A stretch of DNA of 19,149 nucleotides, from the UHGV virus genome UHGV-0137562, one strand, 5' to 3'. Under the pieces are notes generated by a model that searched no databases, was not told the origin of the DNA, and worked only from the letters and a program-made list of their open reading frames with translations. Shown here in pieces: positions 2,959-10,392 of this stretch (the first letter of the stretch is position 1; every line of letters begins with the position of its first letter). Source of the DNA: a virus. The position numbers and the translations under genes are program-made.

Positions 2959-3870
2959 ATGGACCAAACCACCGACATTCAGGCTTCTGAAGAATTAACC
3001 CTGCCCGGCAATCATGCAGCGGCATCTGCTGATGGCTTAGTTGTCGATAATGCCAACGACAACGCAGGTCAGGAAGAAGGCTTCGAGATTGTCCTGAAAG
3101 ACGATGAGAAACCAAAACAAGACCCGGCAACTAATGCTGAATTTGCCCGTCGCCGCATCGAACGCAAACGCCAGCGTGAGCTTGAGCAGCAGATGGAAGC
3201 GGTTAAGCGTGGAGAATTGCCGGAGCACCTGCGGGTGAACCCTGAGTTACCAAAACAACCAGACCCTAACGATTATCTTTCCGAAGATGCACTGGCTAAG
3301 TACGACTATGACCAGAGCCGCGCACTGGCTGCCTTCCAGCAGGCAAACAGTGAATGGCAGATCAAGGCTATGGACGCACGAAGCCAGGCTGTCGCCGAGC
3401 AGGGTCGCAAAACTCAGGAGTTCACCCAGCAATCAGCGCAATACGTCGAGGCAGCCCGTAAGCACTACGACGCAGCGGAAAAGCTCAATATCCCTGACTA
3501 TCAGGAGAAAGAGGATGCATTCATGCAACTGGTGCCGCCAGCAGTCGGTGCCGACATCATGCGCCTCTTCCCGGAGAAATCCGCTGCTCTCATGTATCAC
3601 CTTGGTGCTAATCCTGAAAAAACACGCCAGTTGCTGGCGATGGACGGGCAATCCGCGTTGATTGAACTCACTCGACTGTCAGAACGTTTAACTCTCAAGC
3701 CTCGAGCCAAACCTGTTTCAGAAGCCCCGCTACCTGATGAACCCATTCAGGGACACGCTGTTGCTGCAAATATATCTGCGATTGAAAAGCAGATGGAAGC
3801 GGCAGCAAACAAAGGGGATGTAGAGACATACCGCAAGCTCAAGGCGCAACTGAATAAAGGAATTCGATAA
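2959..3870 (+). CDS. Scaffolding protein (P22 gp8-like), 303 aa
   Basis: Same length as P22 gp8. Charged, helical, low-complexity sequence. C-terminus [15 protein letters not shown] resembles the helix-turn-helix coat-binding tail of P22 scaffold. RBS-like GAGAG upstream. Sits between portal and coat. Confidence 0.85.
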
Positions 3871-4392
3871 TTATTTCGATATCGTGATGTTGTTTTCCTC
3901 GTCAAACTTTCTGATTACTTCTTTCGCCTCTTCGAATGAAGAACATACTTTTTGCACTCTTGCATTAAGCAGTCGCTTATGAGCGATCCATCTTTTCCGC
4001 GTGTTGCAAAAGTAAACTCCAGATATTCCGCTGGAGTTATTTTTAGATAGTTTGATTCTATTCCTTTGGTTTGCTGATTTTTTCACAAGACGAAGATTTT
4101 CAATTCTGTTGTCGTGTCGAATCCCATTTATATGGTCAATTTCCATGCCTTCTGGAATATCTCCGTTAAACATTACCCATACGATGCGGTGTGCTAGCCA
4201 CTTAATGCCGTTAATTCTTATGCGGATATATCCATTGCTTTCTAAAAGACCAGCAACTTTCCCAGCGTGTTTTGCATTCCAAACGTTGTGATAGTTGCGA
4301 TTCTTTTTGTTGTTGAAAAATTCAGAGCTTCTGGCTTTCCAAACCAAAGAACCATCGCGGTATTCGAAGTATTCATTCAGTTCCATGCTCAT
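3871..4392 (-). CDS. HNH homing endonuclease with AP2-like DNA-binding domain, 173 aa
   Basis: Motif EIDHINGIRHDNRIENLRLVKKSANQRN is a classic HNH (His-Asn-His) core. It is followed by SGISGVYFCNTRKRWIAHKRLLNARVQKVCSSFEEAKE, resembling the AP2 domain common in phage HNH endonucleases. Gene is AT-rich, on the opposite strand, and its stop abuts the scaffold stop. Confidence 0.8.
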   Translation of the reverse strand: MSMELNEYFEYRDGSLVWKARSSEFFNNKKNRNYHNVWNAKHAGKVAGLLESNGYIRIRINGIKWLAHRIVWVMFNGDIPEGMEIDHINGIRHDNRIENLRLVKKSANQRNRIKLSKNNSSGISGVYFCNTRKRWIAHKRLLNARVQKVCSSFEEAKEVIRKFDEENNITISK

Positions 4393-4459: not shown

Positions 4460-5755
4460 ATGACTCTCAAAGAAGGGCAGTTAGTTACTTACGCTATCGA
4501 TGAAATCATCGAAACCGTCCAGAACCTGACGCCAATGGCGTCCAAAGTGACAAAATACACCCCTCCGGCAGAATCCATGCAGCGTTCAAGCAACACCGTG
4601 TGGATGCCTGTTGAGCAGGAAGCGCCAACCCAGACTGGCTGGGATTTAACTGGCAACGCAACCGGGATTCTGGAACTCTCCGTGAAATGCAACATGGGTG
4701 ATCCGGATAACGATTTCTTCGAGCTTCGTGCAGATGACCTGCGTGATGAGCGTTCTTACCGTCGCCGCATCCAGGCATCCGCCAAAAAACTGGCGAATAA
4801 CATTGAGTCAGCGATTGCCAAACAGGCAACTGAAATGGGCTCGCTTGTTGTTCACGATACCCGCGCAATTGGTCCATCTACTGGCCTGTCTGGCTGGGAT
4901 TTTGTGTCTGATGCAGAGCGCCTGATGTTCTCCCGTGAGCTAAACCGCGATATGGGCATCAGTTACTTCCTGAACCCTGACGATTACCGCAAAGCAGGCC
5001 GCAACCTGGTAGATGGTGACATCTTCGGGCGCGTTCCTGAAGAAGCGTATCGCAACGGTACTATTCAGCGTCAGATTGCTGGCTTTGATGAAATTCTTCG
5101 CTCGCCGAAACTTCCTGCAGTTACCAAGTCAACCGCTACTGGTGTAACTGTTTCTGGTGCGCAGAAGTTTAAGCCGCAGGCATACACCCTTGATACCGAT
5201 GGTAACAAAGAGAACGTCGACAACCGTGTTGCAACGGTGACCGTATCCTCCACCACCGGATTTAAGCGCGGCGACAAAATCAGCTTCACTGGTGTGAAAT
5301 TCCTGTCTCAGATGGCGAAGAACGTGCTGACTGATGATGCGACTTTCTCAATCACCCGTGTGATCGATGGTACTCACATCGAAATCACGCCGAAACCGAT
5401 TGCACTGGATGACGCGTCACTGACAAAAGAAGAGAAGGCTTACGCTAACGTAAACACCTCTCTTGCTGATTCCACTCCGGTAAACGTTCTGAACGTGGCA
5501 ACAACCACCGCTAACGTGTTCTGGGCTGATGACTCAATCCGCCTGCTGTCTCAGCCGATTCCGGTAACCCATGAACTGTTTGCTGGCATGAAAACGTCTT
5601 CCTTCAGCATTCCTGGTATTGGTGTTAACGGCATCTTCGCAACGCAGGGTGATATCAATACTCTGTCTGGTAAGTGCCGTATTGCTGTGTGGTATTCAGC
5701 ATGTGCTGTACGGCCAGAGGCAATTGGTGTTGGTCTGCCTAACCAGACCGCGTGA
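4460..5755 (+). CDS. Major capsid (coat) protein (P22 gp5-like, HK97 fold), 431 aa
   Basis: Length matches P22 coat (430 aa). N-terminal and internal segments ([46 protein letters not shown]) agree with my recollection of P22 gp5. Followed by a strong terminator. Confidence 0.92.
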
Positions 5756-6870: not shown

Positions 6871-8289
6871 ATGCCGATTCAGCAACTTCCGCTTATGAAA
6901 GGTGTCGGCAAAGACTTTCGAAACGCCGACTATATCGACTATCTGCCAGTGAATATGCTGGCTACACCAAAAGAAATCCTTAACAGCAGCGGATATCTTC
7001 GCTCATTCCCGGGCATTGCCAAACGTTCTGATGTGAACGGTATATCGCGCGGCGTCGAGTACAACATGGCGCAGAGTGCTGTATATCGCGTGTGTGGGGG
7101 CAAGCTGTATAAGGGCGAAAGCGAAGTCGGTGATGTTGCCGGAAGTGGTCGTGTATCAATGGCGCATGGTCGGACATCTCAGGCTGTAGGCGTTAATGGT
7201 CAACTGGTAGAGTATCGCTATGATGGCACGGTTAAAACCGTCTCAAACTGGCCTGCAGATAGCGGATTCACTCAGTATGAGTTAGGTTCGGTTCGTGACA
7301 TTACGCGCTTGCGTGGGCGTTATGCGTGGTCAAAAGACGGCACTGATTCATGGTTTATCACTGACCTTGAAGACGAATCGCATCCTGACCGTTACAGCGC
7401 ACAATATCGTGCCGAGTCTCAGCCTGACGGCATCATCGGCATCGGAACATGGCGAGACTTCATCGTCTGCTTTGGTTCATCGACGATTGAATATTTCTCC
7501 CTGACTGGCGCAACCACCGTTGGTGCCGCTTTGTATGTCGCACAGCCATCACTGATGGTGCAAAAAGGCATCGCCGGGACTTACTGCAAAACGCCGTTTG
7601 CTGATTCGTATGCGTTCATCAGCAATCCGGCAACAGGTGCGCCGTCTGTGTACATCATCGGTTCCGGTCAGGTATCACCAATCGCCAGCGCGAGCATTGA
7701 GAAAATACTACGCTCCTACACTGCTGATGAACTGGCTGATGGCGTGATGGAGTCTCTGCGATTTGATGCGCATGAGTTGCTGATTATCCACCTTCCGCGC
7801 CATGTCCTCGTGTACGACGCATCTTCAAGCGCCAATGGTCCGCAATGGTGTGTGTTGAAAACAGGCCTGTATGACGATGTGTACCGCGCTATCGACTTCA
7901 TTTACGAAGGCAATCAGATAACGTGCGGCGATAAGCTGGAGTCCGTGACCGGGAAATTGCAGTTCGACATCAGCAGCCAGTATGGTCTTCAACAGGAACA
8001 CCTGCTGTTTACTCCTCTGTTCAAAGCGGATAACGCCAGAGTTTTCGACCTTGAAGTTGAATCTTCAACTGGCGTTGCGCAGTACGCTGACCGCCTGTTC
8101 CTCTCTGCAACCACTGACGGAATCAATTACGGACGTGAGCAGATGATTGAGCAGAATGAACCGTTCGTTTACGACAAGCGCGTTTTATGGAAGCGAGTCG
8201 GGCGCATCAGGAAAAATGTTGGCTTCAAATTGCGCGTTATCACGAAGTCACCTGTAACTCTGTCTGGCTGCCAGATAAGGATTGAGTAA
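6871..8289 (+). CDS. Tail accessory protein (P22 gp10-like), 472 aa
   Basis: Same length as P22 gp10. N-terminus [46 protein letters not shown] agrees with recalled P22 gp10. ATG directly follows the gp4 stop. Confidence 0.88.
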
Positions 8290-9242
8290 TGGCTGATTCG
8301 AATCTCAATGAGCCAGTAATCATCCAGGCTACGCGGCTCGATACATCAGTCCTTCCACGCAATATCTTCTCGCAGTCATATCTGCTGTACGTTATCGCAC
8401 AGGGTGCTGATGTTGGTAACGTGGCTAACAAGGCCAACGAAGCAGGGAAGGGGGCTTATGATGCACAGGTGAAGAATGATGAGCAGGATGTCACCCTTGC
8501 AGACCATGAATCCAGAATTGCTGCTGCTGAAGCAACTCTCGTCAATCATGAACATAGAATCGCAGCAGCGGAAAGCACTCTTGCAGATCATGAAACAAGG
8601 ATTACGGCTGCCGAAACAGAGCTGGCTGATCACGAGACGCGAATTGCTGCCAATGAATCTGAGTTAGCAAACCATGATGCGCGAATAACTCAGAATACAA
8701 CCGATATCAACGCACTTGATACCAGGCTCACAGCGGCAGAGGGAAGTATTTCGACGCTACAAAGCACAGTTGGTGATCACTCAACAAGAATATCTGCGCT
8801 TGAGTATGCCACCACGCGCAAGAAATCAGAGGTTGTTTACTCAGGAGTATCGGTAACCATTCCAACAGCGCCGACCAACCTTGTTAGCCTGCTGAAAACG
8901 CTCACGCCGTCATCCGGGACGTTGGCACCATTCTTCGATACTGATAACAACAAGATGGTTGTTTTCAACGAGAACAAAACCCTGTTCTTCAAGCTGTCGA
9001 TTGTCGGGACGTGGCCCAGCGGAACCGCAAACAGGTCAATGCAGCTAACCTTTTCCGGATCTGTTCCTGACACACTGGTAAGCAGTCGCAACTCGGCGAC
9101 AACAACCGATAACATCCTGTTAGCTACGTTCTTCAGCGTGGATAAAGACGGCTTTCTTGCCACAAATGGCAGTACGTTAACCATCCAGTCAAATGGGGCG
9201 GCGTTTACTGCCACAACCATCAAGATAATCGCGGAGCAGTGA
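8289..9242 (+). CDS. Tail needle (P22 gp26-like) with extended C-terminal knob domain, 317 aa
   Basis: N-terminus [43 protein letters not shown] matches the conserved gp26 N-terminal tip. Followed by a repetitive ADHE.RI.AAE coiled-coil region and a roughly 170-aa beta-rich C-terminal extension, as in Sf6/HK620-type knobbed needles. TAATG overlap with the gp10 stop. Confidence 0.85.
8493..8702 (+). repeat. Five tandem 42-bp (14-codon) repeats in the tail-needle coiled coil
   Basis: Translated units: [14 protein letters not shown] / [14 protein letters not shown] / [14 protein letters not shown] / [14 protein letters not shown] / [14 protein letters not shown]. The DNA repeats are visibly similar (e.g. 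gctgatcacgagacgcgaattgctgcc). Confidence 0.8.
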
Positions 9243-9697
9243 TGATTCAGTTCAACCCAACGCGAAACATCGACCTGATCGAAGCAGTCGGAAATCACCC
9301 TGACATTATTGCCGGGAGCAACAACGGTGATGGATACGACTACAAGCCTGAATGCCGTTACTTCGAGGTGAACGTGCACGGGCAGTTCGGCGGCATTGTT
9401 TACTATCAGGAGATTCAGCCTTTGACCTTTGATTGCCACGCCATGTACCTGCCAGAGGTTCGTGGATTCAGCAAGGAAATCGGGCTGGCGTTCTGGCGAT
9501 ACATTCTGACTAACACCACTGTTCAGTGTGTCACATCGTTCGCTGCACGCAAATTCCGCCACGGTCAGATGTACTGCGCAATGATTGGCCTTAAGCGTGT
9601 AGGAACCATCAAGAAATACTTCAAAGGCGTGGATGACGTGACTTTTTACAGCGCAACACGCGAAGAACTAATCGACTTCCTGAATCACGGGAGATAG
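9242..9697 (+). CDS. P22 gp14-like protein (ejection-protein assembly / injection), about 151 aa
   Basis: Sits in the gp14 slot between the needle and the gp7-like gene. ATG at 9242 overlaps the needle stop (TGATG); GTG at 9239 is the alternative start. Call by synteny and size only. Confidence 0.65.
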   Translation: MIQFNPTRNIDLIEAVGNHPDIIAGSNNGDGYDYKPECRYFEVNVHGQFGGIVYYQEIQPLTFDCHAMYLPEVRGFSKEIGLAFWRYILTNTTVQCVTSFAARKFRHGQMYCAMIGLKRVGTIKKYFKGVDDVTFYSATREELIDFLNHGR

Positions 9698-9699
9698 CC

Positions 9700-10392
9700 A
9701 TGTTATATGCATTTACGCTGGGCAGAAAACTGCGCGGCGAGGAACCTTATTGCCCTGAAAAAGGCGGGAAAGGTGGCAGCTCTGATAAAAGCGCAAAGTA
9801 TGCAGCAGAAGCTCAGAAGTATGCTGCAGACCTGCAAAATCAGCAGTTCAACACCATCATGAACAACCTGAAGCCGTTTACTCCTCTGGCTGATAAGTAT
9901 GTCGGCAGCCTCGAGAACTTATCGTCTCTGGAAGGGCAAGGTCAGGCACTTAACCAGTATTACAACTCTCAGCAGTACAAAGATCTTGCTGGTCAGTCTC
10001 GCTATCAGAGTCTGGCGGCAGCGGAAGCAACAGGTGGATTGGGTTCCACTGCAACCGGTAATCAGTTAGCAACAATCGCACCAACGCTTGGTCAGCAGTG
10101 GCTGTCTGGTCAGATGAACAACTACCAGAATCTGGCAAACGTTGGGCTTGGTGCTCTGCAAGGTCAGGCAAACGCAGGGCAGACATATGCCAACAACATG
10201 AGTCAGATTTCGCAGCAAAGTGCGGCTCTTGCAGCGGCAAATGCCAACAGACCATCAGCAATGCAATCTGCTATTGGCGGAGGTGCGTCTGGTGCTATTG
10301 CTGGGGCCGGACTTGCGAAATTAATTGGTTCATCAACTCCGTGGGGGGCTGCGATCGGCGGCGGTCTTGGTCTGCTTGGCTCGTTGTTTTAA
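9700..10392 (+). CDS. Ejection (internal virion) protein, P22 gp7-like, 230 aa
   Basis: Length matches P22 gp7 (229 aa). N-terminus MLYAF.LGRKLRGEEP...EKGGKGGSS as recalled for gp7. Gln/Asn-rich middle and Gly-rich hydrophobic C-terminus (GGGASGAIAGAGLAKLIG...GGGLGLLGSLF). Confidence 0.8.
   Translation: MLYAFTLGRKLRGEEPYCPEKGGKGGSSDKSAKYAAEAQKYAADLQNQQFNTIMNNLKPFTPLADKYVGSLENLSSLEGQGQALNQYYNSQQYKDLAGQSRYQSLAAAEATGGLGSTATGNQLATIAPTLGQQWLSGQMNNYQNLANVGLGALQGQANAGQTYANNMSQISQQSAALAAANANRPSAMQSAIGGGASGAIAGAGLAKLIGSSTPWGAAIGGGLGLLGSLF

Follow-up and report, generated by a model that had tools for sequence, protein, structure and literature searches.

Needles of the P22 type plug the portal and tail channel of the virion and are ejected at infection, as is known for P22 gp26 and has been modelled for Sf6 gp9 (PMC3741392; PMC9728967; bioRxiv 10.64898/2026.09.03.749273). 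The tail hub gp10 is the partner that receives the inserted needle (PMC9728967; PMC3741392), whose distal end reaches past the plane of the tailspikes (PMC3741392; bioRxiv 10.64898/2026.09.03.749273). Published shafts range from 11 to 16 heptads (PMC3741392): the needle of prophage HS1, 317 aa long, has 16, whereas those of Sf6 and P22 have 11 (Leavitt et al. 2013, PMC3741392), and the shafts of HS1 and Sf6 share 67% identity (PMC3741392). Their knob folds as a TNF-like jelly-roll trimer and holds L-glutamate at the subunit interfaces (PMC3741392).

The window analysed here is a stretch of 19,149 nucleotides from the virus genome UHGV-0137562. ORF calling on it delimits a tail needle gene of the P22 gp26/Sf6 gp9/HS1 EcHS_A0316 family on the plus strand (8289–9242; 954 nt, 317 aa; ATG start, TGA stop), which overlaps both neighbours: its ATG shares bases with the gp10 stop codon (TAATG), and its TGA with the start codon of the gene downstream (TGATG). 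Upstream on the same strand lies the gene for the tail hub gp10, the "packaged DNA stabilization protein" (6871–8289; PF11134, 8e-299). Downstream are a gp14-like DUF2824 protein (9242–9697, plus strand; PF11039), followed by homologues of gp7 (9700–10392) and gp20 (10403–11878), both recognized by Pfam profiles of the set PF11039/PF25688/PF16928. Next comes a 613-aa ORF (11875–13716), which the profile search matched to no Pfam family and which was assigned to the gp16 position by synteny with PF26808 genes of relatives. Because PF11134 is found upstream and PF11039, PF25688, and PF16928 downstream, we place the needle in a P22-like late operon; the order gp10, needle, and gp14/gp7/gp20 is also that of the annotated relatives L003–L011. 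Antisense ORFs lying over the needle (e.g., 8837–9562, 241 aa) matched neither NCBIfam nor PHROG and were therefore dismissed as chance ORFs.

Profile searches leave little ambiguity about the family. The protein covers the whole PF16532 model (Phage_tail_NK, positions 1–175) with 355.8 bits (cut-off 27; 4e-107), and in the PHROG search it matches PHROG 1030 "tail needle knob" (3e-135) and phrog_1219 "tail needle protein" (2e-59); NCBIfam returned no needle-specific model, only weak coiled-coil matches, each under its cut-off. An identical full-length protein is present on at least 100 public contigs, labelled "tail needle knob protein". The N-terminal domain (aa 1–68; 8289–8492, plus strand) corresponds to the part of gp26 that would plug the gp10 tail-hub channel: residues 1–79 align to chain residues 1–79 of the 233-aa needle of PDB 5BU5, residues 3–64 to 8EAP_B (residues 1–62 of tail needle gp26), and residues 1–139 to P22 gp26 in PDB 2POH (E 6e-41). 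At the other end, residues 165–317 match the HS1 knob (PDB 4K6B, E 1e-89) and the Sf6 gp9 knob (3RWN, 9e-89), the latter also being nearly identical in sequence. The sequence-only reading had taken the protein for a tail needle whose knob resembles that of Sf6, which is borne out by the PF16532 score and by 152 of 153 residues shared with PDB 4K6B, the sole change being D219 instead of V; such identity to a 1.1 Å crystal structure is better evidence for the knob fold than any model. The L-glutamate-binding residues E181, K235, S283, and D285 (HS1 numbering) are all kept, and the S266/N268 phosphate site is conserved at the same positions. That reading's beta-rich extension of roughly 170 aa is real as a knob but too long, as aa 139–173 still form heptad coiled coil; the knob spans about 144–153 aa, depending on whether it is counted from aa 165 or 174, and the span 174–317 corresponds to 8808–9239 on the plus strand. 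Taken together, ORF 8289–9242 is very probably the gene for a knobbed tail needle of the HS1/Sf6 type in a P22-like E. coli prophage (Lederbergvirus); the 14-residue repeats of this needle would be old protein-level double heptads subject to rare in-register gain and loss of units.

The shaft opens with five in-phase 42-nt units (8493–8702, plus strand; aa 69–138), each encoding two heptads of consensus xLADHExRIxAAEx; in every unit core position a is L and then I, and core position d is H and then A or N (a: LILILILILI..., d: HAHAHAHNHN...). In pairwise comparisons, units 1–4 are 64–79% identical in protein and 48–79% in DNA, and unit 5 is degenerate (36–50% amino acid identity). The distal coiled-coil shaft (aa 139–173; 8703–8807, plus strand) continues with degenerate heptads whose register runs to aa 171. 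It includes a sixth DH-x-x-RI motif at aa 163–168 (nt 8775–8792), 147 nt past unit 4, and a repeat search of the needle gene placed the fifth copy of repeat family D1 at 8761–8791. From aa 70 to 171 the heptad register is unbroken, with LILILILILIILIVI at the a positions and HAHAHAHNHNLALHL at the d positions, a pattern compatible with a trimeric coiled coil. Protein identity at a lag of 14 residues is 0.43, against 0.09 ± 0.03 in shuffled sequences, a value reached in none of 5000 shuffles. Each 14-residue repeat is a pair of shaft heptads, with L/I at a and H/A at d.

A first interpretation had described five tandem 42-bp units as a repeat at the level of the DNA sequence; the units are real and in phase, but the DNA periodicity is wholly imposed by the protein. 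Tandem Repeats Finder (TRF) returned no row in the needle gene, even at a minimum score of 30, and the longest exact in-register run between units is 10 nt. Nucleotide identity at lag 42 is 0.47, which exceeds that of codon shuffles (0.29; z = 7.4) and equals the expectation from amino acid sequence and codon usage (0.472 ± 0.016); where residues are identical, the codon is the same at 30 of 83 positions, for 29.5 expected. The protein repeat thus fully explains the DNA repeat. Synonymous sites between the units are saturated, and at the DNA level the array does not qualify as an unstable tandem repeat: the near-identical head-to-tail copies that characterize slippage-prone tandem DNA are absent from this allele. 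Copy-number polymorphism among close relatives, as expected of a slippage-prone locus, is found, with alleles of 254–345 aa that differ by whole units.

This polymorphism, and the near-perfect 84-nt tandem copies of some alleles, which could be unstable, would suit a hypermutable "contingency" repeat, in which frequent slippage produced several needle lengths per lysate and rapid adaptive switching. We nevertheless regard such a repeat as very improbable, given the low DNA identity of the window units, their short exact runs, the negative TRF result, and a synonymous similarity no higher than expected. The persistence of the 954-nt form also argues against it: this form is unchanged across E. 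coli alleles of 94.8–99.2% DNA identity, was found in 73 of the 80 IMG/VR loci fetched, and its five-unit, 317-aa layout recurs in Klebsiella aerogenes and Serratia homologues of 76–80% protein identity. In all, the needle gene has a match in 884 E. coli genomes and 594 matches in IMG/VR. Because the layout persists over about 5% DNA and 20–24% protein divergence, length shifts more slowly than point substitutions accumulate. The 317-aa layout thus appears to be ancient, and gain or loss of units is apparently occasional, not hypermutable.

The further proposal of slippage or recombination that alters the number of units, and with it needle length, holds for the relatives, where shaft lengths are quantised and junctions lie in register, but not for the window allele as a slippage-prone sequence, given its TRF result, its synonymous saturation, and its stable layout. 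Among knobbed needles, differences in length are mostly multiples of 14 aa inside the shaft. In 87 of 94 full-length homologues, the offset from 317 aa is a multiple of 7, and on the shaft alone heptad phase is kept in 90 of the 94, the four off-phase shafts measuring 101, 94, 83, and 70 aa; when the shaft types are taken separately, every step except one is a multiple of 14. In our alignment (A1), all indels fall in the shaft, the columns of the N-terminal domain and the knob being almost invariant. Shafts here range from about 7 to 20 heptads, a broader span than the published 11–16. All sampled variants can be described as in-register fusions or duplications of units (W1–W5): the 345-aa needle has W1W2 duplicated; the 331-aa needle combines this duplication with a W4/W5 fusion; 303-aa needles carry a W1/W2, W2/W3, or W4/W5 fusion (the W2/W3 form seen from protein only); 289-aa needles carry a W1/W3 fusion made at one or the other of two crossover points; and the 268-aa needle of relative L009 joins W4 to the final DH motif, with the junction TGATCAC. 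Sf6-type needles of 254, 296, 310, and 338 aa are likewise unit fusions or duplications (296 and 310 from protein only). At least 12 distinct in-phase rearrangements were found; length variants recur on many contigs, some of them multi-megabase and chromosome-sized, the 338-aa and 345-aa alleles being represented by one contig each. In complete E. coli genomes, 70-nt junction-spanning queries also match the parental flanks as two-piece spans of 112 nt, and with such queries carriers and non-carriers are inseparable.

Part of these observations would fit a periodicity of purely structural origin, in which convergent selection had shaped the double heptad and the different lengths were old separate lineages rather than products of unit gain and loss. 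Synonymous sites between units are indeed saturated, the motif has clear core roles (L/I at a, H/A at d), and the 317-aa layout is ancient. The variants themselves make this origin hardly credible. Outside the indel, their DNA is 96–97% identical to that of the window gene; each new unit is an exact chimera of two adjacent parental units, with 0–1 mismatches; the expanded alleles hold 84-nt tandem copies 93–98% identical, which TRF does detect; and the same length was reached more than once, three different fusions having produced 303 aa and two crossover points 289 aa. Unit gain and loss is also what the junctions suggest. They carry microhomologies of 5–11 nt (CGCGAAT, TGATCAC, CTTGCAGA, AGAATTG, GCTGC, and CATGAAACGCG), lengths that depend on the parent and become 1–8 nt for some junctions under other assumed parents. 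We propose that the repeats arose by an old amplification of the DHExRI unit, present twice in P22, and that the DH-E-x-R-I codons recurring every 42 nt would provide the microhomology at which in-register slippage or unequal recombination takes place on rare occasions. One event would add or remove 14 aa (sometimes 28 or 49), keep the heptad phase, and lengthen or shorten the needle by about 2 nm per unit; the sixth DH-x-x-RI motif would have been the recombination partner in L009. Read from the junctions, slippage within one molecule and unequal exchange between alleles of phages or prophages that share a host both fit such a mechanism, and in-phase indels could also be enriched by selection for heptad continuity alone.

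By homology and from the literature, the window needle would assemble from three chains into one fibre made of plug, shaft, and knob. Its N-terminal ~60 residues would plug the gp10 tail-hub channel and retain the packaged DNA, and the long trimeric coiled-coil shaft would project past the tailspikes with the TNF-like knob at its tip. At infection, the needle would meet or penetrate the outer membrane and then be released, leaving the channel open to ejection proteins and DNA; ejection kinetics would be modulated by the tip. It is established that needles protrude past the plane of the tailspikes (PMC3741392; bioRxiv 10.64898/2026.09.03.749273), and needle length might accordingly be tuned to the tailspike, and hence to the O-antigen receptor, tip protrusion being fixed and unit number co-varying. 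Five loci were first monotonic in this respect, with needle/tailspike lengths in aa of 254/570, 282/623 (Sf6; tailspike length from PMC9728967), 303/632 or 655, 317/663, and 331/at least 826. This trend, for tailspike length as for tailspike type, was gone at 92 sequences: at least 30 tailspike types (478–1281 aa) were seen alongside the 317-aa needle, the window itself pairs it with a 569-aa tailspike, and one tailspike type can accompany two needle lengths (338 and 317, 289 and 317, 268 and 317, or 282 and 317 aa). We therefore give tuning to the tailspike the least credence of the explanations considered.

A more general idea, which we put forward tentatively and think rather unlikely, is that the shaft length of knobbed needles may be a quantised trait repeatedly reset by in-register microhomology recombination at the DHExRI codons, perhaps adaptive, otherwise neutral. 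If adaptive, length might tune the projection of the tip past the tailspikes and hence when or how deeply the outer membrane is penetrated, or a change of length might allow escape from needle-targeting defences such as the Tai systems (PMC11364771). The value for annotation is small, the gene being a textbook part of P22-like virions; the added value is comparative, in that it reveals a natural ladder of needle lengths, mostly in 14-residue double-heptad steps, with identifiable junctions and uncoupled from tailspike type. This ladder of about 254–345 aa is a natural allelic series for testing the effect of length on DNA-ejection kinetics or envelope penetration, a question left open in the P22/Sf6 literature.

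The needle type of the window has already been characterised, as a close homologue has been crystallised and its long 16-heptad shaft published. This homologue, the needle of the HS1 prophage of E. coli HS (EcHS_A0316; ABV04705.1/WP_000785558.1), shares 306 of 317 residues with that of the window and agrees with it in length, in the five DHExRI units, in the knob, and in lying between gp10 and gp14; the 11 substitutions fall mostly in the N-terminal part and the shaft, only D219 being in the knob, and leave the L-glutamate residues untouched. Sf6 gp9 (282 aa; knob 3RWN; in situ model PMC9728967) resembles it in its N-terminal plug, knob, gene position, and DHExRI double heptads, but is 35 aa (five heptads) shorter and has another shaft sequence type; its DNA matches just 79% of the window gene, at 90.5% identity. 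The needles of P22 (gp26) and HK620 (233 aa; PDB 2POH, 3C9I, 5BU5) are homologous in the N-terminal domain and proximal shaft, gp26 holding two DHExRI units (LADHEARI and DDHESRI), and would share with the window type the roles of portal-channel plug and membrane-penetrating needle (PMC3741392), but they have no knob and end in an unrelated P22-type tip. The earlier mention of a knobbed HK620 needle was thus mistaken, since HK620 typifies the P22-type tip (PMC3741392) and its needle gene matches only nt 1–200 of the window gene. In the engineered elongated P22 needle of PDB 4LIN (300 aa), a duplicated helical-core block makes a longer needle experimentally. The window shaft aligns twice to this duplicated core. 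The construct reportedly folds stably; unlike the window needle, it is a laboratory form of a P22-type needle without a knob, not a natural allele.

The needle ORF, on the + strand, runs from ATG to TGA over 317 codons (8289-9242) and overlaps each neighbour by one base, its ATG the upstream stop codon (TAATG, 8287-8291) and its TGA the downstream ATG (TGATG, 9240-9244); such one-base overlaps on both sides are the tight coupling usual in a phage late operon. It lies between a homologue of the P22 tail hub gp10 (6871-8289; PF11134, E 8e-299) and a gp14-like DUF2824 protein, also homologous to a known P22 gene (9242-9697), the latter being followed by homologues of gp7 (9700-10392; PF25688) and gp20 (10403-11878; PF16928). 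The genes for terminase, portal, scaffold and coat lie 5' of the gp10-needle block, and the 3' part of the window contains an immI-like region and then a tailspike with the P22 head-binding domain. From these P22 gene neighbours, and from the matches of the window as a whole to P22-like E. coli phages and prophages, we infer that the setting is a Lederbergvirus-type prophage of E. coli.

Two other regions of the window deserve mention. An ORF of 173 aa with an HNH endonuclease domain (3871-4392, - strand; PF13392, 3.9e-22) fills a gap of ~590 bp between the scaffold (2959-3870) and coat (4460-5755) genes, which are directly adjoining in three relatives (loci L003, L007 and L011); it looks like a homing-endonuclease insertion within the head-gene cluster. 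In some E. coli prophages (genomes H20 and H30), a NUMOD4-domain, homing endonuclease-like gene adjoins the needle gene itself. The immI-like accessory region (13738-14409 and 16739-17077 on the - strand, 14965-15687 and 15688-16503), which separates the tailspike from the ORF at the gp16 position, encodes a SieA-like superinfection-exclusion protein (phrog_7745, 1.9e-20), two anti-repressor-type proteins (Bro-N + P22_AR_C; phrog_1726, 1e-100) and an Arc/Mnt-like repressor (PF03869).

Searches of the PDB, Pfam and PHROGs agree on the identity of the protein. Its residues 165-317 match the knobs of HS1, the prophage of E. coli HS (4K6B; E 1e-89, 152/153 identical), and of Sf6 gp9 (3RWN; E 9e-89), while needles of the gp26 family, from P22 and relatives (2POH, 3C9I, 5BU5, 8EAP), match its N-terminal part. 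The Sf6-type phage tail needle knob domain (PF16532) is found at 355.8 bits, its cut-off being 27, and the PHROGs matches are "tail needle knob" (3e-135) and "tail needle protein" (2e-59). The HS1 needle has 317 aa, an N-terminal domain sharing 98% identity with the Sf6 one, a shaft of 16 heptads versus 11 in Sf6 and P22, and a knob 99% identical to the Sf6 knob; the structure of the HS1 knob at 1.1 Å contains three bound L-glutamates (Leavitt et al. 2013, PMC3741392). The window needle is almost identical to it, with differences at 11 of the 317 positions, and at only 2 positions from the needle of strain Ecol_881. All the residues reported to hold glutamate (E181, K235, S283, D285) and phosphate (S266, N268) (PMC3741392) are conserved. 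With a plug domain, a continuous heptad shaft, a knob and the canonical gene position, it presents every defining feature of the published Sf6/HS1-type family that a sequence can reveal, and on these grounds we assign it to that family. The sequence-only reading had thus named the right family, a tail needle with an Sf6-like knob; its citing of HK620 as another knobbed needle was an error, HK620 being grouped with the knobless, P22-type tips (PMC3741392) and its gene matching only the first 200 nt of the window gene.

The feature is already known: at least 100 public contigs carry the exact needle sequence, annotated as "tail needle knob protein", 954-nt needle genes also occur in phages JEP4, vB_EcoP-720R6 and Gally, and 164 of 5426 complete E. 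coli genomes have a match over at least 80% of the gene. Many O157:H7 genomes of E. coli (H49-H71) retain the gene's 3' half alone (query nt 507-954), in agreement with the prophage remnants noted in PMC3741392. Knob residue 219 (8943-8945) is Asp in the window and Val in HS1, Sf6 and 12/12 aligned relatives; this allele is real, because several IMG/VR loci (L012-L016, L075) match at 100% identity (as rounded by tblastn).

The five 42-nt units that had been marked at 8493-8702 are real and exactly in phase (8493-8534, 8535-8576, 8577-8618, 8619-8660 and 8661-8702, + strand), each encoding 14 residues, the fifth being degenerate. Units 1-4 share 64-79% protein identity, and a sixth DH-x-x-RI motif lies 147 nt beyond unit 4. 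Lag-14 identity in the shaft is 0.43, versus 0.09 +/- 0.03 after shuffling (reached in 0/5000 shuffles), so that the 14-residue period is far beyond chance. Each unit corresponds to two heptads, with L and I alternating at core position a and H and A at core position d, followed there by N and L. The register is unbroken over residues 70-171, and the size first given for the C-terminal extension was therefore wrong.

The window allele is not a DNA-level tandem repeat. Tandem Repeats Finder (TRF) reported no repeat in the needle gene, even with a minimum score of 30. It did report three small ones elsewhere in the window: a 21-nt unit x2 within gp7 (9789-9830), an 18-nt unit x2.9 encoding the Q/S/N-rich C-terminal tail of gp20 (11769-11821), and a nearly palindromic 19-nt unit x2.1 (ATGACATCATAATGATGTC) in an intergenic stretch of the immI region (14743-14782), possibly an operator. 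The DNA identity of the shaft units is 48-79%, exact in-register runs between them reach 10 nt at most, and the same codon is used at 30 of 83 same-residue positions, versus the 29.5 that codon usage in neighbouring genes would predict. At lag 42, nucleotide identity is 0.47, above that of codon shuffles (0.29 +/- 0.024; z = 7.4) and equal to that obtained by random re-encoding of the same protein with the codon usage of the window (0.472 +/- 0.016); the nucleotide periodicity is hence fully explained by that of the amino acids. Because no further periodicity is left in the DNA, the duplications that made the array are old, in agreement with the Klebsiella aerogenes and Serratia homologues, which have only 76-80% protein identity yet the same 317-aa length and five-unit layout.

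Unit number nevertheless varies among relatives, as had been predicted qualitatively, needle length ranging from 254 to 345 aa. Among the best 120 database relatives, we found lengths of 254, 268, 282, 289, 296, 303, 310, 317, 331, 338 and 345 aa; a 324-aa entry is the 317-aa protein with its start called seven codons upstream. The difference from 317 is a multiple of 7 in 87/94 full-length sequences and the heptad phase is kept in 90/94 shafts (the four off-phase ones measure 101, 94, 83 and 70 aa); in each of the two main shaft sequence types, HS1-like and Sf6-like, all length steps except one are multiples of 14. All indels fall within the shaft, the N-terminal domain and knob being almost invariant.

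The DNA of eight variants was fetched and set in 42-nt rows against the units of the window gene (W1-W8), and every variant examined was an in-register rearrangement. The 345-aa needle (L004) has a W1-W2 duplication with a W3/W1 chimera at the junction, and the 331-aa one (L005) the W1-W2 duplication plus a W4/W5 fusion. The 303-aa form arises from fusion of W1/W2 (L006), W4/W5 (L007) or, at the protein level only, W2/W3 (P0020), the 289-aa form from a W1/W3 fusion (L008; P0043 shows a second crossover point), and the 268-aa form from fusion of W4 to the last DH motif (L009; -147 nt). In the Sf6 type, unit 3 is fused to unit 5 at 254 aa (L011; -84 nt) and an 84-nt block is present in three copies at 338 aa (L010); seen only at the protein level are two copies of a 28-aa block at 310 aa (P0054), a further copy of 14-aa unit 2 at 296 aa (P0071) and fused units 1 and 2 at 268 aa (P0097). 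Crossovers show microhomologies of 5-11 nt (CGCGAAT, TGATCAC, CTTGCAGA, AGAATTG, GCTGC, CATGAAACGCG) within or beside the conserved DH-E-x-R-I codons. By mismatch counts, the variant genes and the window gene share about 96-97% identity outside the indel, and in expanded alleles the 84-nt tandem copies are 93-98% identical and readily found by TRF. Assembly errors are not a plausible source of these classes, because most recur on many contigs, some of them multi-megabase and chromosome-sized: the 303-aa class comprises at least 31 distinct sequences among the relatives listed and the 268-aa allele occurs on 7 contigs. The 338-aa and 345-aa alleles, however, are each known from a single contig. 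At least 12 distinct in-phase events are present in this small sample. In some 317- and 303-aa needles (P0006, P0038), a first unit of Sf6 type (VILADHEQRISAAE) precedes HS1-type units; these are equal-register mosaics of the two shaft sequence types, so that alleles also undergo ordinary homologous exchange within the shaft.

The junctions suggest that rare unequal in-register recombination, or slippage, at conserved codons spaced by 42 nt would add or remove double heptads. Multiples of 7 or 14 would be favoured both by homology at the phased motifs and by selection for the a/d register, which are indistinguishable here. A coiled coil rises about 1.5 Å per residue; each unit gained or lost would then shift needle length by about 2 nm, and the 254-345 aa range would represent roughly 13 nm. 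Length change is rarer than the build-up of several per cent point substitutions, because the 954-nt form is kept among E. coli alleles that are 94.8-99.2% identical in DNA, in 73/80 fetched IMG/VR loci and in other genera. This rarity speaks against a hypermutable locus of the contingency type, at any rate where the units have diverged as in the window allele; alleles whose 84-nt copies are fresh and near-perfect may be less stable. The sequence-only observation is thus partly confirmed, the repeats being real in the protein and not independent at the DNA level, and its interpretation partly supported: the protein family and the length variation among relatives were right, and DNA instability of the window allele, the HK620 comparison and the size of the extension were wrong.

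An apparent trend in the first few loci prompted a comparison of needle length with tailspike type and length, and the idea that the two are matched fails across loci: at least 30 tailspike types, 478-1281 aa long, accompany the 317-aa needle, and the same tailspike type occurs with needles of 338 and 317, 289 and 317, 268 and 317, or 282 and 317 aa. The tailspike of the window has 569 aa (17129-18838; P22 head-binding N-terminal domain PF09008, 5e-67), and none of the 55 complete tailspikes in the fetched loci reaches 70% identity to its receptor-binding part with 80% or more of that part covered.

As regards function, the literature on close homologues (PMC3741392; PMC9728967; bioRxiv 10.64898/2026.09.03.749273) suggests that the N-terminus of the needle trimer would enter the gp10 hub and seal the channel, with the shaft reaching past the tailspike plane; digestion of the O-antigen by the tailspikes would drive the tip into the outer membrane, and a small change in gp10 would free the needle and let the ejection proteins and DNA exit. 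A change of the tip alters ejection kinetics and leaves host range unchanged (same references).

The explicit ladder of 14-residue units, the broader span of about 7-20 heptads in nature and the chimeric junctions were not found in the literature searched, which excludes Bhardwaj et al. 2009; because this most relevant paper lies outside it, we claim no novelty for them. A 2013 survey found knobbed needles only in Escherichia and Shigella phages (PMC3741392), a statement now outdated, since knob-type needles are present in Klebsiella aerogenes, Serratia marcescens and S. fonticola genomes (P0064-P0070, P0117) and in Klebsiella phage phiKp_30 (H4). The long shaft of 16 heptads is itself published, as is a span of 11-16 heptads in P22-like needles generally (PMC3741392). 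A DHExRI-type motif also occurs in P22 gp26, twice (LADHEARI and DDHESRI, seen in the 4LIN alignment), and for this reason the HS1-type shaft looks like an amplification of a double heptad that P22 gp26 has in two copies.
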